From positions 1-64,000 of IMG/VR virus record IMGVR_UViG_3300011113_000257: a stretch of 64,000 nt of DNA, one strand, 5' to 3'. The position numbers and the translations under genes are program-made. The notes beneath the pieces were generated by a model. That model did no database searches, was not told where the DNA came from, and saw only the letters and a list, made by a program, of their open reading frames with translations. Origin of the DNA: a virus. This document shows, one piece after another, positions 37,116-61,383 of this stretch. The stretch's first letter is position 1; every line of letters begins with the position of its first letter.

Positions 37116-37198
37116 ATTAAACACGCTCAACACGCTGAAGGAATACAATTATTTTTCCTAGTGTCATAAGGCTTTTCAAAGTATTTACTAAATTCAAC

Positions 37199-37227
37199 TT
37201 GCACTAACCTGACTTTTCTGAGACAAT
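37199..37227 (+). promoter_or_regulatory. Early promoter TTGCAC-N17-GACAAT
   Basis: Near-identical partner at 37579-37607; followed by AAGGG hairpin and SD. Confidence 0.65.
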
Positions 37228-37271
37228 TGTTTTATCAAGTTGCAAGGGGCAACTGATAGAAGGAGACCAAG

Positions 37272-37478
37272 ATGTCTAACTACCTAACCAAGTCGTATGA
37301 GATTCGCGCCTACACTTTAATGGGCGAGTTCATCTGCGTAGAGTGTGGAGAAAGTCTTTTCAGAAACTCTGACGATGACCCTCAGCCAGTGTTCAGTGAC
37401 CAGTGGAACACTCAGGAGATGCTTGAGACTTATGGGCTAGAAATACCTTGCTTCGCCTGTTACGAAGAAATACGATAG
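37272..37478 (+). CDS. Small Zn-ribbon protein
   Basis: CxxC...CxxC; own promoter, SD (AGGAG) and terminator. Confidence 0.75.
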   Translation: MSNYLTKSYEIRAYTLMGEFICVECGESLFRNSDDDPQPVFSDQWNTQEMLETYGLEIPCFACYEEIR

Positions 37479-37490
37479 CCAAAGGCATAA

Positions 37491-37523
37491 GCCCCTACAC
37501 CGCAAGGTGTGGGGGTTTATCTT
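37491..37523 (+). terminator. Intrinsic terminator with GCAA tetraloop
   Basis: cccctacacc-gcaa-ggtgtgggg followed by a T-rich run. Confidence 0.75.
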
Positions 37524-37647
37524 TGCTTACCGCAGATAGGCATAACCGCAACACGCCAAAAACTTTTTACCGTATGACTTGCATTAACCTGACTTTTCTG
37601 GAATAATCATCTTATGAGGTTGCAAGGGGCAACCGCGAGAGGAAGCA

Positions 37648-37959
37648 ATGACCGTAGAAAAACTAATCGAAGAATACCTAGAGGTTCTAAACGATAAGGC
37701 ACTAACTATCTGCACTACCGCATACGGAGTAAGCAAGGGACGTAAGTTTGCAAAGGTACTGGCACACGGTACTCAGACATCAGTACACGCTTTCGTAAAC
37801 CTAGAGAACGGTGACGTAATCAAGCCAGCAACATTCAATGCACCGCAGAAAAATTCTGACGGTACTTTTTCAGTCCGCTACAACTTAGTGGATGACGAAT
37901 CACGCAAGGCACTATTCGCAGAGTTAGACCCGTATGGTCACTACCTTTACGCAAGGTAG
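37648..37959 (+). CDS. Conserved phage hypothetical protein
   Basis: SVHAFVNLENGDVIKPATFNAP..VRYNL motif; own promoter, hairpin, SD and terminator. Confidence 0.75.
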   Translation: MTVEKLIEEYLEVLNDKALTICTTAYGVSKGRKFAKVLAHGTQTSVHAFVNLENGDVIKPATFNAPQKNSDGTFSVRYNLVDDESRKALFAELDPYGHYLYAR

Positions 37960-37967
37960 CCAACTAG

Positions 37968-38003
37968 AAAAACCCCCCCACCGCAAGGTGAGGGGGCTTT
38001 CTT
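37968..38003. terminator. Bidirectional terminator with GCAA tetraloop
   Basis: A-run, C-run, accgcaaggt, G-run, T-run, between convergent genes. Confidence 0.75.
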
Positions 38004-38015
38004 ATTTACGAAAGA

Positions 38016-38285
38016 TTAAACGCTTTCGCTTTTCTTGCCTTTTGACTTTGTATCAACCGAGTTAAACACTTCATCAATTTCTGCATCAGACAAGTCACCG
38101 TCATTAATGTAGGCGCGTGATAAGCCCTCGACTACGGTAGCGACTCCACCGACTCCAGCCATAAGAATTGCTTGCCAGAGTTCGACTCCAGCAATAGTTC
38201 CAGCACCGATAACCGATAGACCTGAAGCAGAGAATACGGCAAGAATACGCAAGGTAATCTTTCGTATCTTATTAGTTACTGTCAT
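38016..38285 (-). CDS. Small membrane protein (holin-like)
   Basis: Probable start MTVTNK; two hydrophobic segments; charged C-terminus. Confidence 0.55.
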   Translation of the reverse strand: MTVTNKIRKITLRILAVFSASGLSVIGAGTIAGVELWQAILMAGVGGVATVVEGLSRAYINDGDLSDAEIDEVFNSVDTKSKGKKSESV

Positions 38286-38387
38286 AGTGTGTCGTCCTTC
38301 CAAAATTTCACACGGTGCTAAAACAATTTCAGCACCCAGCCTTACGAGTTTATCGCAGGTATTGGGTGCTGAAATTATTTGTGGCAA

Positions 38388-38663
38388 CTACTTAACAATA
38401 ATTCTCATTGCTGTCGGTGCAGTTACTTCAACAACTGGTGCAGGTGCAGGTTCGACAACTGGTTCAATAATTGGTTCTGGTTCTGGCTCAACCGTAGGTT
38501 CAACTACGACTGGTTCAGGTGCAGACTTCCTACCTTTGTATGTCTTTGCAACTGGTTCTTCTACCGTAACTTCCGCTACTGGTTCGACAACTAATTCAGT
38601 CACGGACTCTTCGAGTTCCGCAACTTCATCAACTGTCACTTCAAGTTCTGGATTCAGTTCCAT
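38388..38663 (-). CDS. Acidic Glu/Pro/Val-rich disordered protein
   Basis: Probable start MELNPELE after AAGGA. Confidence 0.6.
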   Translation of the reverse strand: MELNPELEVTVDEVAELEESVTELVVEPVAEVTVEEPVAKTYKGRKSAPEPVVVEPTVEPEPEPIIEPVVEPAPAPVVEVTAPTAMRIIVK

Positions 38664-38719
38664 AGTATTCCTTTGTTGAGGTTGTGCCTTGTATCTATTG
38701 TAAGACACAACTCAACTTC

Positions 38720-38872
38720 CTAGTTCTCTCTAATAGAGAGTAACGCAAGGCTAACCGCGTTAAGACCGAAAGCAAGTGTTAGCAAGTCTTTGCCTAACAT
38801 TGCCGAAACTACTGCCAATACCCCCGCGCCGAGCGAGGCTACTGCCACCCAAATAATTTCAGTTCTATTCAC
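38720..38872 (-). CDS. Two-TM miniprotein (50 aa), not in ORF track
   Basis: GTG start; MNRTEIIWVAVASLGAGVLAVVSAMLGKDLLTLAFGLNAVSLALLSIREN*. Confidence 0.55.
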   Translation of the reverse strand: MNRTEIIWVAVASLGAGVLAVVSAMLGKDLLTLAFGLNAVSLALLSIREN

Positions 38873-39059
38873 TAGAAACCTTTTTCGGGCGAGTTCGACC
38901 CTTTAACCGAGTAGACGAGTCACGCAACTCAACGCCTTCAGCCCAAACTGCCTTCCGCGCTGTACGGTAGCAAACATCTAGTTCACTAGCAATAGTTTCA
39001 ATAGACTTACCTTCTAGGTACATTTCGCTTGCTTGCTTACTAATTTTCTTGACAATCAT
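38865..39059 (-). CDS. Small HTH DNA-binding protein
   Basis: YLEGKSIETIASELDVCYRTARKAV..GVELR. Confidence 0.75.
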   Translation of the reverse strand: MIVKKISKQASEMYLEGKSIETIASELDVCYRTARKAVWAEGVELRDSSTRLKGRTRPKKVSSE

Positions 39060-39107
39060 TATTTACTTTTCCTTTTCTTTTTCTATGTAGGGGCTTGCCC
39101 TACCCCC

Positions 39108-39266
39108 TTAGGGGTAGAGCAAGTCTTTACAACTTTGAGATAACTCAACGGTATCCACCTTGCATCTATCTGGCGTAGCCAAGTTCTCTGCTACTACAAA
39201 CATCGCAATCAGTATTACCGCAATGAATACGTTCCGAACACGTTCTCCGCGCTTAGTAAGTTTCAT
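39108..39266 (-). CDS. Small single-TM protein
   Basis: MKLTKRGERVR followed by a TM segment; AAGGAG SD; promoter TTGACA-N17-TAAGAT at 39305-39333. Confidence 0.65.
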   Translation of the reverse strand: MKLTKRGERVRNVFIAVILIAMFVVAENLATPDRCKVDTVELSQSCKDLLYP

Positions 39267-39307
39267 CTTGCTCTCCTTTTCGTTGAACCATTCAACTAAG
39301 GACAATC

Positions 39308-40252
39308 TTACGCACTAACCTGCACTTTGTCAAGTCCAGACACGCGAGTCTTTTCATAGACGTTAGCCACTACTTCAGCCCAGATAGACGGCGTATGCGT
39401 ATGAGGTTGATAACCACCCGCACCGCCTATCAACACGCGCCCTTGAGCGTAAGTGTTAGCAATGTCCGCAACTATGTCTGAGGCGTATGCATAGCCGTCA
39501 TAGTCAAATTGCAAACTAGCAAGCGGGTCAGTCTTGTGACCATCCGCGCCAGTAGCCAGTAGCACAACATCAGGTTGATACTTATCCGCAAGTTCACGGA
39601 TGTCATCCATAGCCTGAGCAAACTCCAAGTTCCCAGCACCACGAGGCAACGCCCAGTTGTAAACTGAATTTTTTTCGTCGTGACCACTACGCCCAGTTCC
39701 AGGGAATACAGTCCCGTCGTGAATACTCATAGTTGGAATGTCCGTATGGTAAAGCAATGCCTCAACTCCGTCACCGTGATGAGCATCCCAGTCAATGTAC
39801 ATAGTCTTTAGACCTGCTTCACCGAACTTCTTTCCAGCCCAAGCAATGTCATTAAACACGCAAAAACCACTTGAGTAGTCATAGTGAGCGTGATGCTTTG
39901 CACCTTGAGGATTAAAGCCAACTTGCACTTCTCCAGCAATCATCTTCTCAACTAGCCGAGCCGTACCTGCAAACATCTTGAGCGCAGTAAGACCAAGTTC
40001 TGGTTTTGTTCCTGCCCACTCATTCGATAAGCCAAGTAGCACTTCTTGAATGTAGGCAGGGTGATGCACTTTATGTAGTTCTTTAATGTCCGCATCCGTG
40101 CTTTTAGGCGCAACAATCTTTACGCTATTTTTGCCTAACTTGTCAATAAGCAAGTCGGTAGCAAGCAATGCGCGTTCTGGATTAGTAGGGTGACCTTCAC
40201 CTAACTGCCAATCCAAATAATCATTTCCGTATGCAATGTGTAATTTTGTCAT
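39308..40252 (-). CDS. Zn-dependent histone-deacetylase-family (AcuC-like) deacylase
   Basis: HPTNPER, GAKHHAH, SGFCVFND, YIDWDAHHGDGVE, GADGHKTDPL, GGAGGY. Confidence 0.92.
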   Translation of the reverse strand: MTKLHIAYGNDYLDWQLGEGHPTNPERALLATDLLIDKLGKNSVKIVAPKSTDADIKELHKVHHPAYIQEVLLGLSNEWAGTKPELGLTALKMFAGTARLVEKMIAGEVQVGFNPQGAKHHAHYDYSSGFCVFNDIAWAGKKFGEAGLKTMYIDWDAHHGDGVEALLYHTDIPTMSIHDGTVFPGTGRSGHDEKNSVYNWALPRGAGNLEFAQAMDDIRELADKYQPDVVLLATGADGHKTDPLASLQFDYDGYAYASDIVADIANTYAQGRVLIGGAGGYQPHTHTPSIWAEVVANVYEKTRVSGLDKVQVSA

Positions 40253-40759
40253 TTAGTCATTTCCTTTCTTCTCTAAATCTAGTAACCACTTTTCGTAGTC
40301 TTTGTTGCAAAGTACAAGAACACTTCTTGACTGTCGCAAGTATGTGATACTTTCCTCAGCCGAGTAGCCTCTACTCATTAGCACTAATGCGCTAACAAGT
40401 CCAGACCTATTCAGCCCAGACAAGCAACGAATCAGAACACTCTTTCCCGCGTCAAGTTCGTAGTTCACAAAGTCCACTAAAAATTTCAGTTCTTCTTCGT
40501 TAAACTCCGCAACACTTCCATCTTCAAAGTGTTGCCGAAACTCTCTAACGTGCCAGTCCACGGGATTACTCCAAGCGTGTAGTGTCACCACCGTATCAAA
40601 GTCCTGCTTTGTAATCCGTGGTTCTATCTCTGGCTTTCCAACAATGTCATCTTCATCAGTTCCGCCCATAAATAAATTGGGATAAACTTCTGTCCATAAC
40701 TCTTTTGGCATCAGTTCCGCATAAGTTCCGAGTCCTTCTTCCTTTTCGTATTTTGTCAT
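40253..40759 (-). CDS. Dual-specificity / PTP-like protein phosphatase
   Basis: CX5R active site VLIRCLSGLNRSG; EVYPNLFMGG N-terminus. Confidence 0.88.
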   Translation of the reverse strand: MTKYEKEEGLGTYAELMPKELWTEVYPNLFMGGTDEDDIVGKPEIEPRITKQDFDTVVTLHAWSNPVDWHVREFRQHFEDGSVAEFNEEELKFLVDFVNYELDAGKSVLIRCLSGLNRSGLVSALVLMSRGYSAEESITYLRQSRSVLVLCNKDYEKWLLDLEKKGND

Positions 40760-40829
40760 TTTTTCCTTTCCCTTGAAGAATAACAGGTTAATAACATTTT
40801 GTCAAATTGACGGGAAAAGATAAAACCCT

Positions 40830-40883
40830 GTTATCAAATCGTTATCAAATGGATTAGGAAATGTCAGGGTAATGCGCTATGCT
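40830..40883 (+). promoter_or_regulatory. Promoter with upstream GTTATCAAATC direct repeat
   Basis: GTTATCAAATCGTTATCAAAT, then TAGGAA-ATGTCAGGGTAATGCGC-TATGCT; the same 21-mer occurs inverted at 57976-57996. Confidence 0.65.
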
Positions 40884-40924
40884 TAGTACATAAGCCAACA
40901 AGGGGTTGGTGAAAAGGGGTAACA

Positions 40925-41167
40925 ATGAATTGCACTCAATGTGAGAGAAAGGCTTACTCCGTAGGTCTTTGTACTGCGCACTATATGGCTAACTATCGGG
41001 CAAAGAAAAAATACGGCATACCTACCAAAGTCTCTAAGCGACACGGTGGCTGTGTAGAGGCTGGTTGTGAGCGAGAGATTTACTCAAACTCCATTTGCAG
41101 GACACACTATATGAGGGTCTATCGCCGTAGGGTAAAGATACGAAATAAAGAAGGTCTAAAGATTTAG
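40925..41167 (+). CDS. Small protein with two Cys/His (C..C...C..HY) Zn-binding repeats
   Basis: CTQCERKAYSVGLCTAHY and CVEAGCEREIYSNSICRTHY. Confidence 0.75.
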   Translation: MNCTQCERKAYSVGLCTAHYMANYRAKKKYGIPTKVSKRHGGCVEAGCEREIYSNSICRTHYMRVYRRRVKIRNKEGLKI

Positions 41168-41347
41168 AATCCTATACACGGGCTCACAAGGGTCGCCACC
41201 TTCGTCAGCGTATTCCTGTTCTTCAGGGGTTAAGTAATCCCAACCACTATCGTGTACCGCGCAATACTGCTCGCTAATCCACCCTTTTGTTCTGCCAAAC
41301 AGTATCCACTCCGCGCGTTCATCCCATTCTTCGTCTTGCATCTGCAC
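41156..41347 (-). CDS. Hypothetical protein
   Basis: GWIS..YCAVHD...GGDPC motif. Confidence 0.6.
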   Translation of the reverse strand: MQMQDEEWDERAEWILFGRTKGWISEQYCAVHDSGWDYLTPEEQEYADEGGDPCEPVYRILNL

Positions 41348-41358
41348 CCCTAAAAATT

Positions 41359-41919
41359 TCAGTTATCTTTGTACTGTACCGCAATGTGGATAGTTCCGCC
41401 AGTACCTGAATCCAAGTAAGACGAAATAGTTATGGCTTCTTTTAGATAAGTCTTTGCTTCCTCGACCGTAACTTTAGTCCTGACCATAGAATGCAATGCG
41501 CCAAGCGCGAATGATGAGCCACTACCAATACCGTAGATACCTGCAACATCTCTTGCCCAGCAGTAGTCATCATCAATCTCGTAGACAACACCATTAACGC
41601 AAAGGATAATGTTAAACTCTTGGTTTCCGTCTTTTGCGTAACCATTTGTTTCAAAGTAGCCCCTGATTACTGGAATTACTTTAGTAGAAACAAACCTGTC
41701 AAGTTTAACTCCACTTAAGTTTTCCGCATCAGGTAAAGGAATGTCCGCAAGTAAGTTCACAGCCCTCAAGTCTCCTGCAGCACCTATGAGATAGTTCCCG
41801 TTCTTAGATACTTTCTTTATCCCACTTGGTAAAAGATAAACTCTGTTGTCTGATGAAATTTGAGAGTCAAACCCAACAACCGTAAATCCGTCTCCCTGAA
41901 TTGCTGCAATAGTTGTCAT
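41359..41919 (-). CDS. Proteasome beta/HslV-like Ntn-hydrolase protease
   Basis: N-terminal MTTIAAI (Thr nucleophile), GFDSQ, K, GAAGD, GIGSGSSFALGAL, DSGTGG. Confidence 0.85.
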   Translation of the reverse strand: MTTIAAIQGDGFTVVGFDSQISSDNRVYLLPSGIKKVSKNGNYLIGAAGDLRAVNLLADIPLPDAENLSGVKLDRFVSTKVIPVIRGYFETNGYAKDGNQEFNIILCVNGVVYEIDDDYCWARDVAGIYGIGSGSSFALGALHSMVRTKVTVEEAKTYLKEAITISSYLDSGTGGTIHIAVQYKDN

Positions 41920-41936
41920 TAGAAAAGATTTCAGTT

Positions 41937-42203
41937 CTAGACTTCGTAGTCAATCGCGTCATCCCAGAGCAGGTCTTTAAGTTCATTTTCATACTTTGCT
42001 GAGTTCCAACCATTAGTTTTTTCCGAGATGTCTTCCTCATCAACAATCGAATCTAAAGACAAAACTGCCGTGTAGCCGTCATCCTCAAACATAATAATTA
42101 ACTTAGTGTCATCTCTTTCCGCGTCATCAACGATAGCAACAACAAAGGACTCGCCCGTACGATTAGTGTGGTACGCGCTCTGGAGAATTTCTAGTCTGCT
42201 CAT
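41937..42203 (-). CDS. Hypothetical acidic protein
   Basis: ORF track; co-oriented. Confidence 0.6.
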   Translation of the reverse strand: MSRLEILQSAYHTNRTGESFVVAIVDDAERDDTKLIIMFEDDGYTAVLSLDSIVDEEDISEKTNGWNSAKYENELKDLLWDDAIDYEV

Positions 42204-42252
42204 AGCAAAAACATTACCGCATCCTTAGAAAGGCTATTTTTGCTTAAAAAAC

Positions 42253-42483
42253 CTACTTAAAAACAGTAGTGAGCCTGTCGCTTAGGTTTACTATCTTGAC
42301 TATCTTGCTAGTGTTGTCTGGATTAAGTTCCCTAATCAACGCACTAGCCTTTGGATTATTGACCGCACTAAGTTGCTTATGGGCGTAGGCAATAGCCAGC
42401 CCCAAAGAGGTTTGAGTTCTACTCTCGAACGGAGGCTTTATTTCTTTGCCCTTCGAGGTCATTAGTGATACTGAATACTTCAT
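42253..42483 (-). CDS. Hypothetical protein, likely leaderless
   Basis: TTGACA-N16-TAGACT ends 6 nt before the ATG; no SD. Confidence 0.6.
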   Translation of the reverse strand: MKYSVSLMTSKGKEIKPPFESRTQTSLGLAIAYAHKQLSAVNNPKASALIRELNPDNTSKIVKIVNLSDRLTTVFK

Positions 42484-42518
42484 ACCTTTAGTCTACCTAA
42501 AAGATTTCATTTGTCAAG

Positions 42519-42713
42519 TTAATCAAAATACTCAATAACTACCGCGCCCACGAAAGAAACCGCGCCAACTATAAGGGTTGCTACCAAGTAAGTAGGCGTT
42601 ATCACTACTGGCTTTAGCAGACCGATAAACATAAGTTGTAGTTCTAGTAGTGCTAAAGGCAATGAGCCAATAGCAACAAAAGTTAAAACATCCCGTAAGT
42701 GGAATAGAAACAT
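42519..42713 (-). CDS. Small membrane protein
   Basis: Two hydrophobic segments; GGAGG SD. Confidence 0.6.
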   Translation of the reverse strand: MFLFHLRDVLTFVAIGSLPLALLELQLMFIGLLKPVVITPTYLVATLIVGAVSFVGAVVIEYFD

Positions 42714-42716
42714 CTC

Positions 42717-42857
42717 TTAGACCTCCCACTCTCTGTAGCAATCTTGGCAAACCCAATCGAGGGTTATCCAATCGGTGCTTGACGGTGAAACATTAAAACC
42801 ACCGCGAACTGAATCTCCGCACTGTGGACACTGATGTGATTCCTTAAACTTTAACAT
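42717..42857 (-). CDS. Zn-ribbon miniprotein
   Basis: MLKFKESHQCPQCG...CQDC; AAGGAG SD after AAGGG hairpin. Confidence 0.65.
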   Translation of the reverse strand: MLKFKESHQCPQCGDSVRGGFNVSPSSTDWITLDWVCQDCYREWEV

Positions 42858-43204
42858 CTTGCTCTCCTTTTTATCGCCCCTTGCGATAGTTCTATCATAA
42901 CACAAGTCTCTGACCTTTGTCAAGTTAAACGCTAGACGCGCCACCGAAAGGGGATAAGGTGACGCGCCTAACATTTATGAGTGGGGAGAAAGGGGGGGCA
43001 ACCCCACTCGTATTCGGAGCATAGGGAGAAGGGAGAAAACCCTCGCTCTACGAACTCCTCTACTTTAGCATAAAAAAATTTCAGTTATGCCTCCGTGTCG
43101 GAAAATTTAACAATCCCCACAAACTGACTTACTCGAAACCTTTTTCGAGTCAAGCCCAAACCTTTTACCGCATCTCCAACAATTAGTAAAGATAGTCACT
43201 ACCC

Positions 43205-43429
43205 TCACTCCCCAATCTCTGGAATGTCGTAGTCGTTCTGCCAACCGCACTTAGGGCAAGTCCAAACACCGCGCCCCCAGTCGTCAAAAGATACTTCCTC
43301 TGTACCCTCAAACTTGCAGTCAATCTCCGCGCCTGACTGAAACTCAATAATGCCTTTGCACTCTAGGTCATCAATCTCTGCTGAATCCGCGTAGAATCCT
43401 GAACCTCTTAGTGAACCTTCGTAACTCAT
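43205..43429 (-). CDS. Small Zn-binding protein
   Basis: C...C...CPKC; AAGGGA SD. Confidence 0.7.
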   Translation of the reverse strand: MSYEGSLRGSGFYADSAEIDDLECKGIIEFQSGAEIDCKFEGTEEVSFDDWGRGVWTCPKCGWQNDYDIPEIGE

Positions 43430-43497
43430 TTTGTTTCCCTTCTTCTATCGCCCCTTGCGATAAATCTATTTAACCACATAATCTGACTAATGTCAAG

Positions 43498-43671
43498 TTA
43501 CTTGATAACTGTGCCTGTCCAACCCTCTGGAATTGAGTATTTAGTTTTTAGTGCCGTGTGAAAAGTGTCCACAACTATCTGACAAACACCGTCTAGTATC
43601 TCGTCACTCATTCCGTCAAGGTATGTCCGCAAGTTTTCCTGCAACTGTTCTTGCAATTCAAAAGTATTCAT
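43498..43671 (-). CDS. Hypothetical protein (57 aa), not in ORF track
   Basis: MNTFELQEQLQENLRTYLDG...; AAGGAG SD. Confidence 0.6.
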   Translation of the reverse strand: MNTFELQEQLQENLRTYLDGMSDEILDGVCQIVVDTFHTALKTKYSIPEGWTGTVIK

Positions 43672-43740
43672 CTTGTTCTCCTTTCAAGAGTAAAGTTCCC
43701 CAACCCTAAATTTCCAAAACATCTAGGGGTGGGGAATCCT

Positions 43741-43935
43741 TTATTTGTCGTTGATACCTAACAAAGCGAAAATTTCATCTTCGTTCAAGACAGTAACCTT
43801 GTCGCCACTATCATCAACAATTTTTACGCTAGTTACACGGTAAGAGTTAGCAACCAAGTCACGAACTTCTTGCGCCGTGTTAGCGGTAAAACTGTACTCG
43901 TTATCTTTCGACTTCATTGTTACGTTGTAAGCCAT
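43741..43935 (-). CDS. Hypothetical protein (64 aa)
   Basis: Start MAYNVT after AAGGGAG; the track's longer start runs through the ncRNA candidate. Confidence 0.65.
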   Translation of the reverse strand: MAYNVTMKSKDNEYSFTANTAQEVRDLVANSYRVTSVKIVDDSGDKVTVLNEDEIFALLGINDK

Positions 43936-43993
43936 TTCGTTCTCCCTTCTTGGCTCTACCCTTCCCGCACTTTGCGGAAAAGTTTTCAGTTTA

Positions 43994-44135
43994 TGAAGTA
44001 GGTAGGTGGCTCTCTCAACCACCTGTATGCGCTTCCCCACGCTTCCTATTCGGCTACCTACTTCAGTATTGACTGGCGAACTACGCACCGCACTCCAGTT
44101 GTAGTTTTCTTACCTAGTGCAAGACCAGTCAAGTC
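43994..44135 (-). ncRNA. Candidate structured ncRNA (pseudoknot domain plus tRNA-like cloverleaf)
   Basis: Stems 44132-44125/44076-44069 and 44065-44055/44004-43994; own promoter at 44159-44187. Confidence 0.5.
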
Positions 44136-44188
44136 TTTCTCTATTTAGTTATGACCCTAGTCTATCATACTAGGTTTGCTTTCGCAAG

Positions 44189-44267
44189 TCCCAAGAGTAG
44201 GAATCGAACCTACCGTGCCAAAGCGAGTGATTTACAGTCACCTTCCCCACCTTGAGGAATCCTTGGG
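44189..44267 (-). tRNA. trnY: tRNA-Tyr(GTA), atypical D arm, no encoded CCA
   Basis: Acceptor CCCAAGG/TCTTGGG; anticodon arm GGTGA-CTGTAAA-TCACT; long variable region; T arm GTAGG-TTCGATT-CCTAC; promoter at 44287-44315. Confidence 0.75.
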
Positions 44268-44301
44268 GTTATTTAGTTATGGAACTAGTTTATCATACTA
44301 G

Positions 44302-44798: not shown

Positions 44799-44880
44799 TT
44801 TTTCACCCCTTTCCGTGTGATAACACGAGTCTATCATACCTACCTGACATTTGCAACCCTAACGCCCGAGCGTGGTGGGG

Positions 44881-53889: not shown

Positions 53890-55698
53890 TTATCCGTTAC
53901 GGTTTCCCATAGCGGTTAGTGCTTTCGCACACGCTTGTCCGATAGCGTTGGACGCTTCCGTTGGAGAAGCCACACCGCTTAACGGCTCTACCGTTGTCCC
54001 CCTTAGGAGACTTCTGGCACTTGAACCGTTGTCGAACGGTATCCATACTACCGCCACGCCGTTGCTCTCACACTGCGACACCCAACTCCGAGCCTTTTGG
54101 GTCTCGTCGTAAGTGTACACGCCGTCGGATACCACGACTAAAAGCCTAGCACCGTCACCGTTGAGCAGGTTCAACTCGCCGTCTATTGCCTTGAACGCCT
54201 TGTCAAACTTTTCCGTACCGTCTGGTGCTGTGTACACCGTTACGTCCGTTAAGTGCTGACCAGACTTGAGCGTAGGGAACACGTCGTCGCCGTAGTACAC
54301 CATCGCGCACTTGCCTTGGACTCGCCGAGTTGCTTCCGACATTACCCACGCCGTTGTCGCCATCGGTTGCATCGCCGAATTCATCGAACCGCTAATGTCT
54401 ACCATCACGCCGACCTTTAGTGTTGGCTCGTCCGTTGTCTTACGGACTCGCTTACGCCAAGGTTGCGCCGTTGGTTGCATACCTATCGCCTTGTGTGCTT
54501 CGTTCTGCATAGCCGAGCGAGTTCGTAGCCGTCCACCGGGAACAATGCTACGCACTTCAACAACATCGCGCTCGCGATACTTTGCACGCTCTAATGCGCT
54601 CGCCACTTTCACCGCGCTGATACGCTCGTCTGCCGTAGGCTTACGAACCTCTGTTGCATAACTACGAGTACGAGTAGATGCTGATGGACCAGTACCTCGC
54701 CCGAAAACTTCTTGAGCAACTTTAACATTCTCACGACTTTGCTTTGCACTGTCCGCGCGATTCTTAACTTCCTCTTTCCATTCCTCTGACTCCTCTTGGT
54801 CTGCAAGTTCGGAGTAGTTAGACACCGCAACATTTTCAGATGCTTCTTTCAACTTCTCAAGTAACTCTTTTAATGCTTCGCCAACTTCAGATGTAGACTC
54901 ACCACTTCCACCAGAAGTACTTTCACTACCAGAATTATCCTCGCCACGTTCGTTTGCAAGGTCGCGAACAATCTGTGCCCACTCACGCGCTAATGGATAA
55001 ACAGGTTCCATGTTTCGATGGTCTGTGTGTGTAATGAAACGCTCGATAACACTGCATAACTTTTCAACAGTTTCGTTGCCTAAGTATTCCTCTATAAATT
55101 CTGTAACCTCTAGAACATCATCACGCTCTAAAATTCCACCAATGATTCGACCATGCACTAGTCCAACTAAAGTTGCAATGTTTGAAACACTACCCTGTGT
55201 CAAATCCTCTGACTCAAAATCTGCAATAACAATTTCCATTGCACTTGAGCATAGAAATGCGCGATACCGAGCATCAAGCAAAATACCTTGTGCTTCGATT
55301 CGTGATTCCTCAAGAAGCATTAGTGCTTCGTACTCGTCTGACTTTAATGCTTCGTAAGCAGACTCTAAACTCCACTTCGAGAAACGAGCGTGAAATGCTT
55401 CGTGCATTATCGCGCCAGTTGCCTTTGGAAATTCGTACTGCGTTGAGCGTTGATTAATGTCGCTAATGTGTTCTGGCTTAATGCCAAACCCGAAAGCAAT
55501 TTCTGTGTTCACTTCAATTTCTGCAATCGCTGGCTTGTAGCACGCTGGCGCATTGCTACCTGCAACAGGAGATGCAAGTCCAACTAAATCACCGCGACCT
55601 GCGATTGAGTTTGCTAGTTGCGCAATCTGCGAACCAACTGCATACCATTCTGGATGTCTTTCACCAGAAGTCTTACTGTGTGTGTCAATGTGTGCCAT
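53890..55698 (-). CDS. HEXXH metallopeptidase-like plus VWA domain protein (CobT/MoxR-partner type)
   Basis: HEAFH...LEESRIE; MIDAS motif DISGS; VVSDG. Confidence 0.85.
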   Translation of the reverse strand: MAHIDTHSKTSGERHPEWYAVGSQIAQLANSIAGRGDLVGLASPVAGSNAPACYKPAIAEIEVNTEIAFGFGIKPEHISDINQRSTQYEFPKATGAIMHEAFHARFSKWSLESAYEALKSDEYEALMLLEESRIEAQGILLDARYRAFLCSSAMEIVIADFESEDLTQGSVSNIATLVGLVHGRIIGGILERDDVLEVTEFIEEYLGNETVEKLCSVIERFITHTDHRNMEPVYPLAREWAQIVRDLANERGEDNSGSESTSGGSGESTSEVGEALKELLEKLKEASENVAVSNYSELADQEESEEWKEEVKNRADSAKQSRENVKVAQEVFGRGTGPSASTRTRSYATEVRKPTADERISAVKVASALERAKYRERDVVEVRSIVPGGRLRTRSAMQNEAHKAIGMQPTAQPWRKRVRKTTDEPTLKVGVMVDISGSMNSAMQPMATTAWVMSEATRRVQGKCAMVYYGDDVFPTLKSGQHLTDVTVYTAPDGTEKFDKAFKAIDGELNLLNGDGARLLVVVSDGVYTYDETQKARSWVSQCESNGVAVVWIPFDNGSSARSLLRGTTVEPLSGVASPTEASNAIGQACAKALTAMGNRNG

Positions 55699-55835
55699 CT
55701 CTGGCTCCTTCCTTTTGTACGCCCCTTTGACGTACTCTGTGAGTTTATCATACCTTCTTGATATTTCCAAATTGAAGGGTGGGGAGTCGGGAAACACTCA
55801 CGAAAACCGACTCCCCTTAGCAAGGATGAAAGGGA

Positions 55836-56867
55836 CTAAATCCTTGCTGGCTTGTATTCCGCACCAAACACGCGAGACAGAACATCTGCCACGATTGGTC
55901 TGTCCATCTCTGGTGCAGAAGCAAGTAAGTTCGAGATACCAAACGGAACCCCGAATGTTGTAACGATGTCGCGGAACGCTAAAAGTTCGCGCATCTGTGG
56001 AGCCCACGAGACTTCACCAGACTCTTGTTTCTTAGCAAGATTCTGCGCAACAGTAACGAGGTTGCTAGGTACACCTAAGGTGCGAGCAAGTGACCAGTCA
56101 GTTGCCATCTCTGCTTGAACAGTAAAGCGAGATAGTAAGGCTTCTGAAAGTCGTACTCCCGGAGCATTAGGGTTAGTTGCACCCACAACATAAAAGTCAG
56201 GGTGAACCTTAACAGTACCTCTGTCAGGATTAGCAGTGACAGTAATTTCGCCACGTCCATCCATCACGCCATACAAACCTGAAAGTTGCTTAGGGTCAAT
56301 CAGACCAATCTCGTCAATGAACAAGACTGCACCTTCCTCTACTGCTCGCACAAGTGGACCATCTACCCACTCGAAACCACCAGCAGGATTCTGTACGAAC
56401 CCACCAAGGAAGTCTGACATTTCGATGTCAGCAGTTCCAAGTACTGTGTACATATTTCCACCAAACGCTGCTTCGACTAATGCAGTCTTACCAGTTCCCG
56501 GTGCGCCATAAAGCAACGCGAACATTGGCGAGCCAACTTTGTCTGTGACAGACAAGGTAGTTGCTTCACGAGCCTTGCGTAATGTTGCAACATCTTGATG
56601 TTCACCCCAAGTACGAGCGTGGTACACACTTCCATTTGGACGAATGTATTGACTACTACTTGATTCAAGTGTGACACCTGATGTTGTAATTGGTGTCGCT
56701 ACGCGAGCAACGCGAGGTGCGCGTTCTACGAAACGACCTTGTGGTAAAACCTGCGAGATTACTCTCATAGATGCTTCTGTTGATACTGACTGCGCAACCA
56801 TGTCGTCTAACATGGAAGTGAATTCAGTTCCCCACTTTGAATAAATTTCATTTTCTTTGATGCTCAT
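55836..56867 (-). CDS. MoxR/CbbQ-type AAA+ ATPase
   Basis: GAPGTGKT, WVDGPLVRA, LFIDE, ATNP, LSEALLSRF. Confidence 0.92.
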   Translation of the reverse strand: MSIKENEIYSKWGTEFTSMLDDMVAQSVSTEASMRVISQVLPQGRFVERAPRVARVATPITTSGVTLESSSSQYIRPNGSVYHARTWGEHQDVATLRKAREATTLSVTDKVGSPMFALLYGAPGTGKTALVEAAFGGNMYTVLGTADIEMSDFLGGFVQNPAGGFEWVDGPLVRAVEEGAVLFIDEIGLIDPKQLSGLYGVMDGRGEITVTANPDRGTVKVHPDFYVVGATNPNAPGVRLSEALLSRFTVQAEMATDWSLARTLGVPSNLVTVAQNLAKKQESGEVSWAPQMRELLAFRDIVTTFGVPFGISNLLASAPEMDRPIVADVLSRVFGAEYKPARI

Positions 56868-56883
56868 AATTTTCAGTCCCTTT

Positions 56884-57351
56884 CTACGCTGTGAACATTT
56901 CTGGATAAGATAATGCAGTTCGAGTCTGGTTGATTCGATGCACGACCTTAGTTGGAGTCTTACCTTCTGTTACATCTGTCAAGTCTTTCTGTGAAACTTC
57001 CACAAAAAATGGCTTGCCAATAAGTACGCTACTAATTGAAACGCGCTTCATAAACCACGCTAGTGTTTGAAGTCGCTCCTCGCGATGGTTCTCTGATGTA
57101 ACCCCTGTTGCTGGGTCTACGAGACTACGCTGAAGTGCTTGCACCTTCCATTGTTTCTTTGGCTGTGATGCCGAAAGACGACGATAGTAGACACGCGCTG
57201 TCGAAAAATTTCCAAGTTCATTCCAACCATCTGGAGTAATGAACATCTGAAAAATCTGTTGGTATTCATTCTTGAATTCCGCGTACAAGGCTGTGCCCTG
57301 TACTTTCTTTTCTGGGTCTGTAAGCAGACCAAGAGGTGTTTCTGTTGACAT
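56884..57351 (-). CDS. Hypothetical protein (first gene of the AAA operon)
   Basis: Promoter at 57398-57426; AAGGA SD. Confidence 0.7.
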   Translation of the reverse strand: MSTETPLGLLTDPEKKVQGTALYAEFKNEYQQIFQMFITPDGWNELGNFSTARVYYRRLSASQPKKQWKVQALQRSLVDPATGVTSENHREERLQTLAWFMKRVSISSVLIGKPFFVEVSQKDLTDVTEGKTPTKVVHRINQTRTALSYPEMFTA

Positions 57352-57475
57352 AGTGAGTATTTCCTTTCTTTATGTCTTTTGTCCCTGTGACATTTCTAGT
57401 TTAGCATAACGCTATGATGGAGTCAAATCGGGGTAGGAGTATGTCTAAGGAGACCTACCCCGACCTGACTTCTAA

Positions 57476-57808
57476 CTACTTAGCGACAATGATGTCGTAA
57501 GTAGAAACCTTTGAACAGGTTTCGTATGCTTCTGGATAAACTTCTTTCAGAAGCGTTGAGTCCACATTGGTGCGTGAACGTGGTGCAAGTTCCACTACTG
57601 GAAGCCCTGCGACAGTACCAACCTTGGCAGAACCAATTAGGTCACGAATTGCGCTGTCAAGTTCTGACTTTGCTTTTTCGAGTTCCTTGATTGCAAGTTT
57701 TGCGTTAGCAAAATCTGCAAGCAGGTTCGCGATGTTGGTGTTGTCCAATTCAACGGTGGACGTTTCCGTGACAACCTGTGTTGTCGTTACCTGTGTGCGT
57801 ATGCTCAC
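57476..57808 (-). CDS. Coiled-coil protein resembling YqaJ-type C-terminal region
   Basis: GTG after AAGGGG; VDSTLLKEVYPEAYE motif. Confidence 0.55.
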   Translation of the reverse strand: MSIRTQVTTTQVVTETSTVELDNTNIANLLADFANAKLAIKELEKAKSELDSAIRDLIGSAKVGTVAGLPVVELAPRSRTNVDSTLLKEVYPEAYETCSKVSTYDIIVAK

Positions 57809-58122
57809 TTTGGCGATTCCCCTTTCAAGGAAAGTTCGATAGACCATCTAACGAACAGTTCTAACTTTACGCCCTACACCTGACATTTGTCAAATCGAGC
57901 GTTTCCACCCCGATTTCTCGGGCTGTTTTCGTTCATAGAACCAATGTAACACATTACCCTGACATCCGCAAGTTTATTTGATAACGATTTGATAACGGAC
58001 CGGGAACTGAAATTTTTTAGTTCCGGGTTGTTGAAGGCGGGCTCCAATAAAAAATTTCACTTTTGGGCAAAAAGAAACCCCCGTTCGAAACTCACTGGTT
58101 TCGATTTAACGGGGGTTGGTCT

Positions 58123-58311
58123 TTAGAGTTCTTGCTCCCACTTTTCGATGTCAAACATTTCCCAGATTTCATCATCTGTGAAATTTTCCTTCAACCAAAT
58201 AGCGGTGCGCTTTTGGACTACTGGGTTTTCGTCTACTGGCTTAGCAGTTCCGAAGATGCTACCCATAAGGGCTTGGTATGCGTGTGCGTTTGCTTCATGC
58301 GGTTTGTTCAT
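58123..58311 (-). CDS. Hypothetical protein
   Basis: ATGA coupling. Confidence 0.6.
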   Translation of the reverse strand: MNKPHEANAHAYQALMGSIFGTAKPVDENPVVQKRTAIWLKENFTDDEIWEMFDIEKWEQEL

Positions 58312-58772
58312 ACTCCTACGGTAACACGAGGCACTGACATTTCTTCAGGTGTCCAAATGTAGGGGAGGTCACTTGGCGTATCGGGAAAAAATTCAGAGTA
58401 GTACTCAGGGGCTTTGCGCAAGAGATTCGAGCGGTGCGATTCGTGGAACCGTGAGTTCCCGATGAACCAAGGCAAGCCTTCGTACCGCTTACCTTGCACC
58501 GTTAGGTCTCGCATCTTCTCGATGAAGTACGGTAGCAGGTTGTCGACATACCCTCTCCGTTTCCACTCCAGCGACATTATTGAACCGTAGTACGCGAGTG
58601 CGAACTCGTGCCCACGCCACATCTTGGTCGCAGGGTGGTTGACCCAACCCGTTGTCTCGCCGTTGAGCGCCATCAGTATTTGCTTGGTCTCAACCCGTTG
58701 CTTCCCGAGCCGTCGGTAGTCCAATACCCTCGCCGTCTTTTCAAAATCGGCGTATGGCAGGAACGTCTGCAT
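58308..58772 (-). CDS. MSMEG_6728-family pyrimidine-dimer DNA glycosylase / endonuclease V-like protein
   Basis: MQTFLPY, LD.RRLGKQRVE, HPATKMW, HESHRSNLLRK, DLPYIW. Confidence 0.85.
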   Translation of the reverse strand: MQTFLPYADFEKTARVLDYRRLGKQRVETKQILMALNGETTGWVNHPATKMWRGHEFALAYYGSIMSLEWKRRGYVDNLLPYFIEKMRDLTVQGKRYEGLPWFIGNSRFHESHRSNLLRKAPEYYSEFFPDTPSDLPYIWTPEEMSVPRVTVGV

Positions 58773-58957
58773 TAGCCCTCGCCGTTCTCTCGAACTAGCG
58801 CGATGGCTCTCGCCATGCCTGCAGACCAACCGTCGTTAAACGCGACATCCGTCTCGTCCATTTCCTCAGCGTCCGTCATGTCTTCTTCGGTTACCCGTTC
58901 CCACTCCTCCATTAAAATTTCTAATAGTGTCATGTGGTCACGCCCGCTAACGCCCAC
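58772..58957 (-). CDS. Hypothetical acidic protein
   Basis: TAATG coupling to the next gene. Confidence 0.55.
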   Translation of the reverse strand: MGVSGRDHMTLLEILMEEWERVTEEDMTDAEEMDETDVAFNDGWSAGMARAIALVRENGEG

Positions 58958-59169
58958 GCCTTCTTGAGGTCGCGGTCGAAGTCGCGTTGCAACTTATCCC
59001 ACGCCGTTTCGTCAAAAAGGATTGGGTGCGCCTCTTGCTTATTTCTGCTAAGCACTCGCCGTATAAAAGATTTCAGTTCCGTGTAGTTCATGTTCTTGCT
59101 CCTCCTTTGTTTTGCGGGGCACGCCGTGTGCCTCGCCGTCGTGATGTATTAACTTTATGATAAAAGTTT

Positions 59170-59454
59170 CTAGATGTCAAGCGCGTACTCTGGGAGTTCC
59201 ATCCCTGCCCCAACTAACGCGCGCCGTATTAAACCTTGCTGACGCGAAGTTGTCTGCGAGTATTTATCTACGTTCAGATAAGTAACCTGACGTTTTTCTG
59301 TGTTTATACTAGCCATCCGTGTTGAGTAAGAGTAGATGTCGTAGATGATGTCGCCACCAGCGTCGCACCATTTCGAGGCTCTCATGCTGTGACCGTGCTT
59401 GAATGGTTTGAATGCTGGAATAAATTCTTCTGCAATTTCTTTGTAACTAGGCAT
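59170..59454 (-). CDS. Conserved phage hypothetical protein
   Basis: IYSYST...KYSQTTSRQQ; full cassette. Confidence 0.7.
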   Translation of the reverse strand: MPSYKEIAEEFIPAFKPFKHGHSMRASKWCDAGGDIIYDIYSYSTRMASINTEKRQVTYLNVDKYSQTTSRQQGLIRRALVGAGMELPEYALDI

Positions 59455-59539
59455 TTTTATTTCCCTTCCCGTTGATGTGTCTCACCAACAAGAACCATTC
59501 TATCATACCAACCTGACATTCGCAACTTAAGGCACGCCA

Positions 59540-59893
59540 TTAGATTTCTTCAGTGTCTTCCATTAGTTCAGGAAGATTTTCCTCAACCATCTCCCAGAAG
59601 GTATCAAAAATTTCGATATTCTCTCGAACCTCTTCAACGGGTGCATCGTATTCAATGGTAACGATTTCGTGGACGTGCTCTTCGTCTTCCTCAACGTGGT
59701 GAGTTCGAAACACATAGTCACCGTCTTCGGTGATTAGGTAATTAATAAACATCACGGAGCACTCAGATGTGAGCGCGACTTGGTATGTCTCGGTTAGGGG
59801 GTCGTAGATAGGACAGCAAGCAGAAATGATGTCGTGCATGTAGTGCCCTTTTTTGATGACACGGCTTGGGTGAATGTTGTTCGGTTTGTTCAT
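59540..59893 (-). CDS. Hypothetical acidic protein (possibly leaderless)
   Basis: Promoter at 59900-59928 ends 6 nt before the ATG. Confidence 0.55.
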   Translation of the reverse strand: MNKPNNIHPSRVIKKGHYMHDIISACCPIYDPLTETYQVALTSECSVMFINYLITEDGDYVFRTHHVEEDEEHVHEIVTIEYDAPVEEVRENIEIFDTFWEMVEENLPELMEDTEEI

Positions 59894-60127
59894 ACTAGCA
59901 GTATTGCACATCCGTCTGACATTTCCAAATCGGGCTCAGGGCACACCGTTTAAAAAATTTCAGTTTTGAGTTTGCACGGATGGATTTTGCGGTCCTAGCC
60001 CGGAAAATATAAAAAGGAGGCGGGTGGCCTGGGCGGCTCTTCCAGGCTAAGCGGTTTAACCGTTTAAAAGATTGCGTCAACAATCAGGGCGGCTAGAATA
60101 AGCGCCCCGAGAAATGCAAAAGGAAAT

Positions 60128-60295
60128 TTAAACTCGCTCATCGGTCATCTCGGCGGTCAGCATCTTAACCAGTTCCGTTGCGCGGTTGGCTCTTGCGGTT
60201 ACGCGGATGTGCTCTTCGCGGGTCTTCGCAAGCGGGATGTCTGCGGTTAGGTCACGGGCTAATTCTTCGGCGACTGCTAATAAGTTATTTGTCAT
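60128..60295 (-). CDS. Hypothetical protein
   Basis: MTNNLLAVAEELARDL... Confidence 0.5.
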   Translation of the reverse strand: MTNNLLAVAEELARDLTADIPLAKTREEHIRVTARANRATELVKMLTAEMTDERV

Positions 60296-61268
60296 CAGGG
60301 CTCGCCGCCTGGTCTTCTGAGGCTGCATCCGTTATTATATTTTCCGGGCGGTCATCAGGATTGGATACAATCACGGCATCCGTTATCTCGTAGGTGGCTA
60401 CATCCGTTGGTGTTTCTTCCGGGGACAGGACGCTATAAACGCTCGCCGCTCCTGCAGCAAGCCGTTGCAATCTTTCAGCAACAATGACATGTGGCGGTCG
60501 CGCATCGTTGACTTCGACATCAACGCTAAGTTCCATTCCTCCGCGCACGCCCGCACGGTCGAGAATCTCCGTCGCCGCTTTTAACTTAACGGGTTCAGAC
60601 TCAGCGTTCTCCATCATATCTTCTAGAACGTCGACTGCATACGGTGCGGCTTGGATGAGTTTGCGTCTCGCCCGTTCTACATCTTCGCCCGGTTTGCGGA
60701 CGGACTTTAAGTGGGCTCGGCACAAGCCGTCATCTTTGAGGCGACCAGATGCCCACAACATACAGCGCAAGCCGTCATCCTTGATAGTTCGGCATCGCGT
60801 CGGGAGAACTGCGGGTTGCTTTCTTTCGCTCGCCGTTGGTTCGTTTTGTTCCGCTACCCACTTACGGGTCGCGCCGATAACCCAAGGCGGAGAAATCTTC
60901 ATGGCGTTGTCATCAAGCAGGAGGTCAACACCCGTTAGGTAATCTGAATTATTATTTGAACCGTCAACTAAAAGCGGTCGCTTCTCAACGAGTGAGAGGA
61001 CACGCCGTTCGCGCATTGCCTCTGGAGACCGTGCGGCTATCATACCCGTTGGGTTACCCGTTGCGTCGTAAACGGAATCCCAGTTGTAATGGGCTCGCCG
61101 TAATAGGGAGCGGTTGTCGTAGGTGTCGTCGCACACGCCCCGTTCGTGCTCTATGATACCGAGTTCGGAAAGGTCGGGGCGTAGGTCTAGCGGTGTATCA
61201 AGGCGTGGCGCTCTATCCGTTGGGTCATCTTTGGGACCCTCGGAATCAAACTTTATAACTTCTGTCAT
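60285..61268 (-). CDS. Putative terminase small-subunit-like protein (Cys/His finger plus VKLKAATEILDRAG helix)
   Basis: RC...G.RC...LC..H followed by VKLKAATEILDRAG; the function is inferred. Confidence 0.4.
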   Translation of the reverse strand: MTEVIKFDSEGPKDDPTDRAPRLDTPLDLRPDLSELGIIEHERGVCDDTYDNRSLLRRAHYNWDSVYDATGNPTGMIAARSPEAMRERRVLSLVEKRPLLVDGSNNNSDYLTGVDLLLDDNAMKISPPWVIGATRKWVAEQNEPTASERKQPAVLPTRCRTIKDDGLRCMLWASGRLKDDGLCRAHLKSVRKPGEDVERARRKLIQAAPYAVDVLEDMMENAESEPVKLKAATEILDRAGVRGGMELSVDVEVNDARPPHVIVAERLQRLAAGAASVYSVLSPEETPTDVATYEITDAVIVSNPDDRPENIITDAASEDQAASPDDK

Positions 61269-61383
61269 GCCTCGCCGTTCAATAAAAAATTTCAGTTATC
61301 GTCTCACAATGTGGAACGATTGCTCGCCGTTAAAAAATTTCAGTTTTGCGGGCGGGGAAGCCGCCGCTGCCTGGAAGTTGTAA

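Follow-up and report, generated by a model that had tools for sequence, protein, structure and literature searches.

The window analysed here is a 64,000-nucleotide (nt) stretch, positions 1–64000 of a 110,857-bp phage contig in IMG/VR (record IMGVR_UViG_3300011113_000257; CheckV completeness 83%). Between the virion genes and the replication genes lies an array of small open reading frames (ORFs) extending over ~24 kb (37.2–61.4 kb), in which at least 24 self-contained units, or cassettes, share one layout of regulatory signals. The virion genes occupy 1–36.7 kb on the minus strand and encode the tape measure, a collagen-like fibre, the major capsid protein, the portal and a 1735-aa (amino acid) head protein, and the plus strand from 63.4 kb rightward encodes ribonucleotide reductase, primase, helicase and a family-A DNA polymerase. 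Genes were called with a simple codon model, one model being used for all four arrays compared, and the proteins were then clustered into families (g numbers).

Read along the gene strand, a unit begins with a terminator formed by a GC-rich hairpin and a T-run, which is followed by a 14-bp box (AACTGAAATTTTTT), often by the word GGGACACGCG, and by an A-rich stretch. The promoter then consists of a -35 element (TTGCAA or TTGACA), the motif AATGTCAGG opening a spacer of 17–18 nt, often a TG, and a -10 element of the form TANNNT. A short 5′ leader hairpin, usually with a purine-rich 5-nt loop, precedes the Shine–Dalgarno (SD) sequence GAAAGGGAAAnAAAATG and the ORF or ORFs. Generic scans for sigma-70 promoters and terminators barely exceeded the shuffle level (27 versus 22 promoters and 31 versus 20 terminators), and lineage-specific matrices and folding were therefore used. 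A 45-nt promoter matrix built from the repeats gave 18 hits genome-wide, 17 of them at 40.8–59.9 kb. The single full hit outside the array (72851–72895, minus strand) lies in the replication region, directly upstream of a 110-aa ORF (72525–72857) whose called start it overlaps. A looser pattern (TTGNNN, 17–18 nt, TANNNT, with T(G/A)TCA(G/A) opening the spacer) identified 21 intergenic minus-strand promoters, ~16 of which are followed by a leader with a predicted 5′-terminal hairpin, its loop being 5 nt long in 12. At least 24 sigma-70-like promoters (TTGNNN-17/18-TANNNT) are present, many with TG before the -10 element and GGAAAAGATAA-type stretches upstream, and ~15 strong GC-rich hairpin and T-run sequences on the gene strand, predicted to function as terminators, lie 60–120 nt upstream of promoters. 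The exact box occurs 14 times, always between 43,073 and 61,345 (11 copies on the minus strand and three on the plus strand); nine further copies have one mismatch, eight of them at 38.8–59.1 kb, and a reversed-pattern control gave no hits. The counts of box, promoter, leader hairpin and terminator are all far above chance.

This architecture agrees with an earlier note on the same DNA, which had described more than 20 units of one layout. The order box, GACAC and promoter proposed there was borne out for the box and the promoter, but GACAC lies upstream of only ~8 of 23 promoters and the box is linked to the terminator rather than to the promoter. The near-identical blocks it had listed are real: the 29-mer at 44828–44856 recurs exactly at 45080–45108, and the other pairs are 50090–50194 and 51118–51222 (105 nt, 87%), 37197–37265 and 37577–37645 (69 nt, 80%), and 42869 and 43443 (36 nt, 81%). 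So are its three inverted cassettes, each of which has its own promoter, hairpin, SD and ORF. The GTCAGG motif is itself inverted (CCTGAC), at a similar spacer position, in the plus-strand promoters at 37.2 and 37.6 kb, and for this reason an operator bound on double-stranded DNA may fit somewhat better than a polymerase contact. Coordinated control through the shared promoter and spacer motif, also proposed earlier, is plausible from the sequence. A tandem word, TTATCAAATCGTTATCAAAT, stands directly upstream of two promoters, one per strand (40830–40849 and 57976–57995), and may be a second operator type.

An 8-kb piece of the array had no megablast match among GenBank phages, and relatives were instead identified by scanning for the pattern box-N(25-55)-ATGTCAGG. 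The scan retrieved G001, a 119.7-kb viral contig with 26 boxes at the same relative position and 80–92% nucleotide identity to this genome. The more distant genomes R3 and R4 were reached by searching with two array proteins, which also yielded ~80 loci belonging to a wide family (GC content 39–61%), and a metagenome scan added ten strain-level fragments (82–92% nucleotide identity) containing the same elements; more than 90 related contigs were found. G001 and R3 have the same box and promoter, and R4 shares the promoter and the layout, with AACTGAACTTTTTT at the places where R3 retains the box. The lineages L027 and L030 have TTGTAAATTTTTTAGG and TATTTTTTAGGGGAA, respectively, in both cases after terminators and before promoters, and AATGTCAG is retained in several lineages among the R3, R4, L027 and L030 comparisons. 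The freshwater metagenomic Actinomycetia phage DSL-LC01 (L102; OQ999401, 10225–45196) exhibits the same long row of small genes and the same cassette layout, with at least 16 copies each of its own promoter word GATTCTAAAGATGTTATAAT and leader word AACGACGAAAGGACAA. The layout is a family trait, and the motif sequences are lineage-specific. A few small array proteins are 84–88% similar between distant lineages, against ~60–80% for core proteins; this difference is not decisive for lateral cassette transfer between those lineages, and we make no such claim.

Comparison of the arrays revealed that gene order is not stable. The ends are colinear (g2–g17, 63.8–53.7 kb; g48–g59, 42.7–37.6 kb), with g50–g58 forming a core in all four genomes and the backbone families g8 and g14–g17 present in 57–78 of 79 distant loci. 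In the middle (53.7–42.7 kb), genes have been replaced, inserted, duplicated and moved, which gives a combinatorial mosaic. Families g18, g28, g34, g48, g61, g75, g78, g81 and g84 change neighbours from one genome to another, and many ORFs occur in a single one of the four. Against a background of ~87% identity, 23 replacement or indel events separate this genome from G001, and 21 events separate R3 from R4. Among the strain-level fragments, the slot between g17 and g19 contains {18}, {74,75,76}, {74,76} or {74,18}, that between g26 and g29 contains {27,28}, {81,82,83}, {28} or {147,81,28}, that between g37 and g39 contains {38} or {85}, and that between g40 and g42 contains {41} or {86}. All four combinations of the g26–g29 and g37–g39 slot states are present, indicating reassortment between slots. 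Units of promoter, gene and terminator can also be present or absent between the same neighbours in the manner of morons, as with g83, g84 and g41/g86.

With respect to the regulatory blocks, the junctions of these events are placed in a strongly non-random manner. In the comparison of this genome with G001, 9 of 46 junctions fall in coding interiors where 29 were expected (p = 2e-9). The other three comparison directions agree (p between 1e-12 and 1e-13), the figure between R3 and R4 being 3 of 42 with 25 expected (p = 1e-12). The SD and start zone (-20 to +5 of the start codon) accounts for 11 of the 46 junctions with G001 (3 expected), the promoter core for 7 (1.7 expected) and the stop codon for 7 (4 expected), and when non-coding positions alone are considered, the SD zone and the promoter core are still enriched ~2-fold. 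Moved genes retain similarity only from about -12 (the SD) or about -50 (the -10 element and leader) to the stop codon; for g18 in R3 and R4 it extends from -12 to +0 (90% over 507 nt), and for g34 from +0 to +0. In individual events, similarity ends right after ...AATGTCAGG (events 1, 8, 11, 17 and 20) or between ...GAAGGGAAA and the ATG (events 2, 7 and 21), and it resumes at the terminator in events 8, 9 and 16. On both sides of a conserved island of terminator and promoter (events 8 and 9), the ORFs are replaced in G001 by unrelated ones of different length.

Two events exhibit this pattern in its simplest form. The cleanest case, and a recent one, is a duplication of g48 in G001, with two copies 99% identical over 255 nt. 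The identity runs from the -10 element of a promoter into the -35 element of the next, the -35 element and CTTGACAA(A) occur at each end, and the insert interrupts the recipient promoter. The g41 ORF (~44881–45033), which occurs in no relative, lies between the two identical 29-nt promoter cores (events 17 and 18), and G001 has one promoter core and a different ORF at this site. Both events carry the signature predicted by the model of promoter-early stem-loops (PeSLs), which mediate modular shuffling in T4-like myoviruses (Arbiol et al. 2010, PMC2839356; Comeau et al. 2014, PMC4122927).

The box behaves differently from the other parts of the block. The earlier note had expected junctions in the repeated elements, and they lie at the promoter core, the SD/start and the stop codon, not at the box or GACAC: 0 of 35, 0 of 40, 4 of 38 and 3 of 39 junctions are within 15 nt of a box, against ~2.3 expected. 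On these junction positions the box was rejected as a recombination site, and the most exact repeat is therefore not the recombination handle. In either orientation the box tracks the preceding terminator, 44–60 nt from the stop codon, whereas its distance to the -35 element varies from 23 to 47 nt, and a promoter UP element was rejected on these grounds. A class-II-type terminator or a promoter for a phage RNA polymerase was likewise rejected, since no such polymerase was found and 3 of the 14 boxes here, and about one third in R3, are inverted. Three conserved genes, g8, g51 and g52, also have a box directly before their starts, and no promoter lies between. Its linkage to the terminator, its tolerance of orientation, its presence between genes that are never shuffled and its coordinated change from lineage to lineage suggest that the box binds a protein and has a regulatory or insulating function. 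In an 18-bp hairpin terminator directly upstream of a normal box (53773–53817), the loop and part of the stem are made up of a box variant, TACTGAAATTTTTT. Because the box changes in concert between lineages while keeping its position, and is not a recombination junction, it is tempting to assign it to a co-evolving phage protein that would insulate or switch each cassette, a control layer not described for PeSLs; we hold this more specific proposal to be doubtful. If it is true, the whole block would be a portable 'expression adaptor' that lets the phage family domesticate any incoming ORF.

Table 1 Positions of the array, its regulatory elements and its boxes (numbering of the window; dG, free energy of the hairpin).
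Feature	Position	Strand	Remarks
Whole cassette array	37190–61350	-	~55 small ORFs, nearly all on the minus strand, mostly without a Pfam or PHROG match
Conserved upstream backbone, families g8–g17	53706–61350	-	10.2-kb alignment to G001, 87.5%
Hypervariable middle	42715–53706	-	21 of 23 events relative to G001 begin or end here (events 1–21)
Conserved downstream backbone, g48–g59	37579–42715	-	From alignment and gene-family maps
Regulatory island, terminator and promoter, 86 nt	49486–49571	-	94% identical to G001 (events 8, 9)
Promoter TTGGAA / ATGTCAGA... / AATACT	59900–59928	-	
Promoter TTGCGA-17-TAGAAT	59497–59525	-	ATGTCAGG spacer motif
Promoter TTGCGG-17-TACATT	57943–57971	-	ATGTCAGG
Promoter TTGACA-18-TAAAGT	57864–57893	-	AATGTCAGG
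Promoter TTGGAA-17-TAAACT	55742–55770	-	Degenerate ATATCAAG
Promoter TAGGTA-17-TATGAT	53702–53730	-	ATGTCAGG; left junction, event 1
Promoter TTGACA-18-TATCCT	53178–53207	-	AATGTCAGG
Promoter TTGCAA-17-TATCAT	52820–52848	-	ATGTCAGG
Promoter TTGACA-18-TATACT	52323–52352	-	AATGTCAGG
Promoter TTGCAA-17-TAAACT	51174–51202	-	Within 105-nt block repeated at 50090–50194
Promoter TTGCAA-17-TACGCT	50577–50605	-	
Promoter TTGCGA-17-TAAACT	50146–50174	-	Left junction, event 8
Promoter TTGATA-17-TACAAT	49016–49044	-	Extra cassette (g83) at core in G001 (event 10)
Promoter TTGACA-17-TACTAT	48807–48835	-	Split by g48 copy in G001
Promoter TTGCGA-17-TACAAT	47361–47389	-	
Promoter TTGCAA-17-TATTAT	46857–46885	-	
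Promoter TTGCAT-17-TATACT	46411–46439	-	
Promoter TTGACT-17-TAAGGT	46105–46133	-	TATCAGG variant
Promoter core, 29 nt identical to 44828–44856	45080–45108	-	Copy flanking g41
Promoter core, second identical copy	44828–44856	-	Other flank of g41
Promoter TTGCAT-17-TACACT	44491–44519	-	
Promoter TTGACA-18-TATGAT	42894–42923	-	AAGGTCAG variant; junction of events 20, 21
Inverted cassette 1, promoter TTGCAC-17-GACAAT	37199–37227	+	Spacer CCTGAC; ORF 37272–37478
Inverted cassette 2, promoter TTGCAT-17-AATAAT	37579–37607	+	Spacer CCTGAC; ORF 37648–37959
Inverted cassette 3, promoter TAGGAA / ATGTCAGG / TATGCT	40855–40883	+	ORF 40925–41167
Example 5′ leader hairpin, 9-bp stem, pentaloop	51145–51167	-	dG -12.2
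Example leader hairpin ATCGC-AAGGG-GCGAT	42873–42887	-	
Leader hairpin GTTGC-AAGGG-GCAAC, inverted cassette 1	37239–37253	+	
Intrinsic terminator	58069–58116	-	dG -21.7
Intrinsic terminator	52914–52951	-	dG -19.6
Intrinsic terminator	50607–50634	-	dG -20.0
Intrinsic terminator	50226–50261	-	dG -16.5
Intrinsic terminator	49099–49140	-	dG -22.9
Intrinsic terminator	47397–47434	-	dG -23.0
Intrinsic terminator	46941–46969	-	
Intrinsic terminator	46203–46238	-	
Intrinsic terminator	45579–45618	-	dG -20.9
Intrinsic terminator	45111–45142	-	
Intrinsic terminator	44576–44615	-	
Two-way terminator, minus-strand array meets inverted cassette 2	37962–37999		
Box, exact	61332–61345	-	
Box, exact	61284–61297	-	15 nt before g8 start; no sigma-70-type promoter between
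Box, exact	59952–59965	-	
Box, exact, inverted	58005–58018	+	
Box, exact	53756–53769	-	
Box, exact	52896–52909	-	
Box, exact	51240–51253	-	
Box, exact, inverted	50206–50219	+	
Box, exact	49086–49099	-	
Box, exact	46914–46927	-	
Box, exact, inverted	46178–46191	+	
Box, exact	45555–45568	-	
Box, exact	44561–44574	-	
Box, exact	43073–43086	-	
Box, one mismatch	41923–41936	-	Fills gap between g50 stop and g51 start; box here in 4 of 4 genomes
Box, one mismatch	41351–41364	-	9 nt before g52 start; box here in 4 of 4 genomes

Several genes of the backbones have recognisable domains. In the upstream backbone, a MoxR-type AAA ATPase (55836–56867) adjoins a 602-aa partner (53890–55698) whose counterpart in DSL-LC01 is annotated as a cobalamin biosynthesis protein. 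The downstream backbone encodes an HslV-like peptidase (41359–41919), a dual-specificity-phosphatase-like protein (40253–40759) and a histone-deacetylase-family protein (39308–40252); inverted cassette 3, which lies among these genes, is absent from G001 (event 22). In the middle region, a tRNA-Tyr gene (44188–44267, minus strand), the only match in an Rfam scan, is located between two 48-nt direct repeats (44142–44189 and 44270–44317) that are promoter-like and have no GTCAGG motif. Beyond these repeats lie ~150 nt without an ORF and a degenerate box (region 43990–44320), and in G001 a 111-bp insertion begins exactly where the second repeat ends (event 19).

On the virion side, the array is preceded by ~450 nt of purine-rich non-coding sequence with AAGGCA/AAAGACA repeats (36688–37140). 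The same junction in G001 is 1.4 kb long, and the retrieved G001 stretch adjoining it has at least ten copies of CATAGGCATAGGC-type words. Within the virion block, a 3827-aa ORF (20885–32368) has an RNase T-type exonuclease (residues 1494–1659) as its sole recognised domain. At the other end, a 436-nt gap (63007–63448) separates the leftward array from the rightward replication genes. It contains two 40-nt repeats that are 80% alike (63079–63118 and 63298–63337) and rich in ACATAAAA/AAACAT words, and may represent an origin or a divergent control region.

The phage is an uncultivated siphovirus with a genome of about 110–130 kb. Its capsid protein is nearest to that of DSL-LC01 (66% identity), followed by those of Microbacterium and Gordonia phages; DSL-LC01, the nearest described relative, is a freshwater phage genome predicted to be that of an actinophage (PMC10611076). 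The host is probably an actinobacterium, as judged from these capsid relatives and those of the terminase. The DSL-LC01 annotation suggested that g52 is WhiB-like, which Pfam did not confirm, and the assignment of an actinobacterial host therefore rests on the capsid and terminase relatives. Inspection of the large proteins of the genome revealed no phage RNA polymerase, and transcription should therefore rely on the host enzyme.

We consider it likely that the repeated standard blocks both serve expression and act as crossover points that move ORFs as intact units, that is, by the PeSL mechanism. The block would in the first place be an expression device that gives each small gene strong, insulated, uniform and probably co-regulated transcription and translation, with promoters of the host type (sigma-70/sigma-A) and a 5′ hairpin that probably stabilises the mRNA. 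The array would be expressed early, with GTCAGG as its operator. Since sequences of 10–100 nt recur every few hundred bases, they would provide crossover points for homologous or short-homology recombination, leading to deletion and duplication within a genome and to replacement and reassortment between co-infecting relatives. ORFs would thereby be inserted, deleted, duplicated, replaced and moved intact, the repeats causing the exchanges rather than selection filtering them. A Sak4-like annealing protein is encoded beside an exonuclease in the plus-strand replication region (genome positions 94.4–96.1 kb), and proteins of the Sak4 class recombine short, diverged homologies. These two proteins, or host RecA, could catalyse the exchanges, and an integrase would not be needed. 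Stable gene order and random breakpoints, the two outcomes that the earlier note had named as refuting its idea, were both looked for and did not occur. The idea that the repeated flanks are recombination handles thus holds in that genes are gained, lost and shuffled there, and the repeats probably cause these exchanges.

Some observations weigh against this interpretation. All cassettes share the motifs, and an alignment consequently runs through a motif even where the flanks are not orthologous, so that a junction inside a motif cannot be fully separated from a junction next to it. A donor–recipient pair is available only for the g48 duplication, and promoter strength, timing and terminator function are predictions. 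The nine junctions inside coding sequence (events 3, 5, 6 and 14) also fit an explanation in which the repeats serve expression only, recombination is illegitimate and may occur anywhere, and selection removes the events that cut genes or separate them from their signals. Selection alone would likewise purge junctions inside genes and hence predicts their depletion there. That the box, the most exact repeat, is not a junction site, and that DSL-LC01 keeps the layout with wholly different motifs, which implies strong functional selection on the block, also speak for it. However, selection on expression does not readily account for the ~2-fold enrichment of non-coding junctions at the promoter core and SD zone, for the -35 element at both ends of the g48 duplication or for the identical 29-nt cores around the inserted g41. 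Blocks of 70–105 nt with 80–90% identity before unrelated ORFs, moreover, exceed the functional need. We regard an expression-only role as unlikely, albeit the main contender.

The mosaicism could also be largely an artefact, produced by short-read mis-joins of co-occurring strains, or by collapse or rearrangement, at the repeated blocks. All the genomes compared are metagenome assemblies in which repeats of 30–105 nt can cause mis-joins; the repeats, up to 29 nt exact and 105 nt at 87%, are near assembler k-mer sizes, and the mis-joins would fall at them. Yet at least 14 independent assemblies exhibit the same slots with limited, recurring alternative contents, many derived arrangements are common to R3 and R4, and many replacements bring in ORFs that a single haplotype carries, their junctions lying at the SD or stop codon, where exact repeats are shorter than 20 nt. 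An artefact on this scale appears very improbable. A site-specific system of the integron or homing type, with a nuclease or recombinase recognising the box, is hardly credible: the box is asymmetric, exact, confined to the array and located at cassette boundaries beside terminators, and its concerted change by lineage (AACTGAACTTTTTT in R4, TTGTAAATTTTTTAGG in L027 and TATTTTTTAGGGGAA in L030) fits a co-evolving protein partner, but junctions are not enriched at it, no integrase or recombinase was seen in the proteins scanned, and it stands between g50, g51 and g52, which are conserved and never shuffled in all four genomes.

Shuffling at repeated expression blocks, the reading we favour, is not a new idea, since PeSL shuffling has already been published; a full-text literature search found PeSLs documented essentially only in T4-like phages. 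Like PeSLs, the blocks described here combine a terminator with a strong sigma-70-like promoter and an AT-rich upstream region, occur in tens of copies, and are concentrated in hyperplastic regions before orphan ORFs (the array holds 17 of the 18 matrix hits and each of the 14 exact boxes). In both systems, the motifs delimit the indels and replacements that distinguish close relatives, an inserted ORF can lie between two copies, and homologous recombination without a dedicated recombinase has been proposed. The array matches every PeSL feature tested except the phage group. In contrast to the T4-like myoviruses, this is an unrelated siphovirus with capsid and terminase nearest to those of actinophages, its units form one continuous ~24-kb array where PeSLs occupy several regions, and its block has additional fixed parts, namely the terminator-side box, the AATGTCAGG spacer motif, the 5′ pentaloop hairpin and a standard SD/start that is a frequent junction.

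Other systems are similar in part. Lambdoid morons, reportedly described by Juhala, Hendrix and co-workers in 2000 as scattered single insertions with unrelated signals, are likewise genes equipped with a promoter and a terminator of their own, which one phage carries and a relative lacks between the same flanking genes; here, in contrast, dozens of units with one standard set of signals form an array. The host-takeover module of the Bacillus phage SPO1 shares the dense small genes, many short operons, very strong host-type promoters, strong SDs and terminators, its genes being early; it is said (Stewart et al., 1998) to lie in the terminal redundancy, and a shuffling comparison is reportedly no part of its description. 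Integrons likewise hold a row of small, unrelated, exchangeable genes, and the earlier note called the array integron-like. Integron cassettes, however, are promoterless, have attC sites and depend on a tyrosine integrase, one attI site and one Pc promoter, and this comparison did not hold. Each cassette here has its own promoter, the 3′ ends are ordinary terminators or have none, junctions fall at stop, SD and promoter rather than at one site, and no attC-type site was seen; an integrase, whose absence had been remarked on before, was not seen in the proteins scanned, which did not include every small ORF. The stoperators of cluster A mycobacteriophages are short asymmetric motifs repeated many times through a gene block, as the motifs here are, and one regulator is likely in each case. 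Stoperators are located inside transcribed regions, where the immunity repressor binds them, whereas GTCAGG lies in promoter spacers and the box beside terminators, and no repressor was identified.

These findings extend modular shuffling mediated by promoters and terminators from T4-like myoviruses to an unrelated and abundant family of environmental phages, and suggest that 'plug-and-play' accessory-gene arrays arise convergently. The array provides a natural set of standard promoter, 5′-leader and SD parts, and the box and the GTCAGG spacer motif are two cis-elements whose binding partners could be sought. For the phage family itself, such shuffling would explain the many strain-specific orphan genes of the region, and the variable slots are places in which to seek host-takeover and anti-defence genes.

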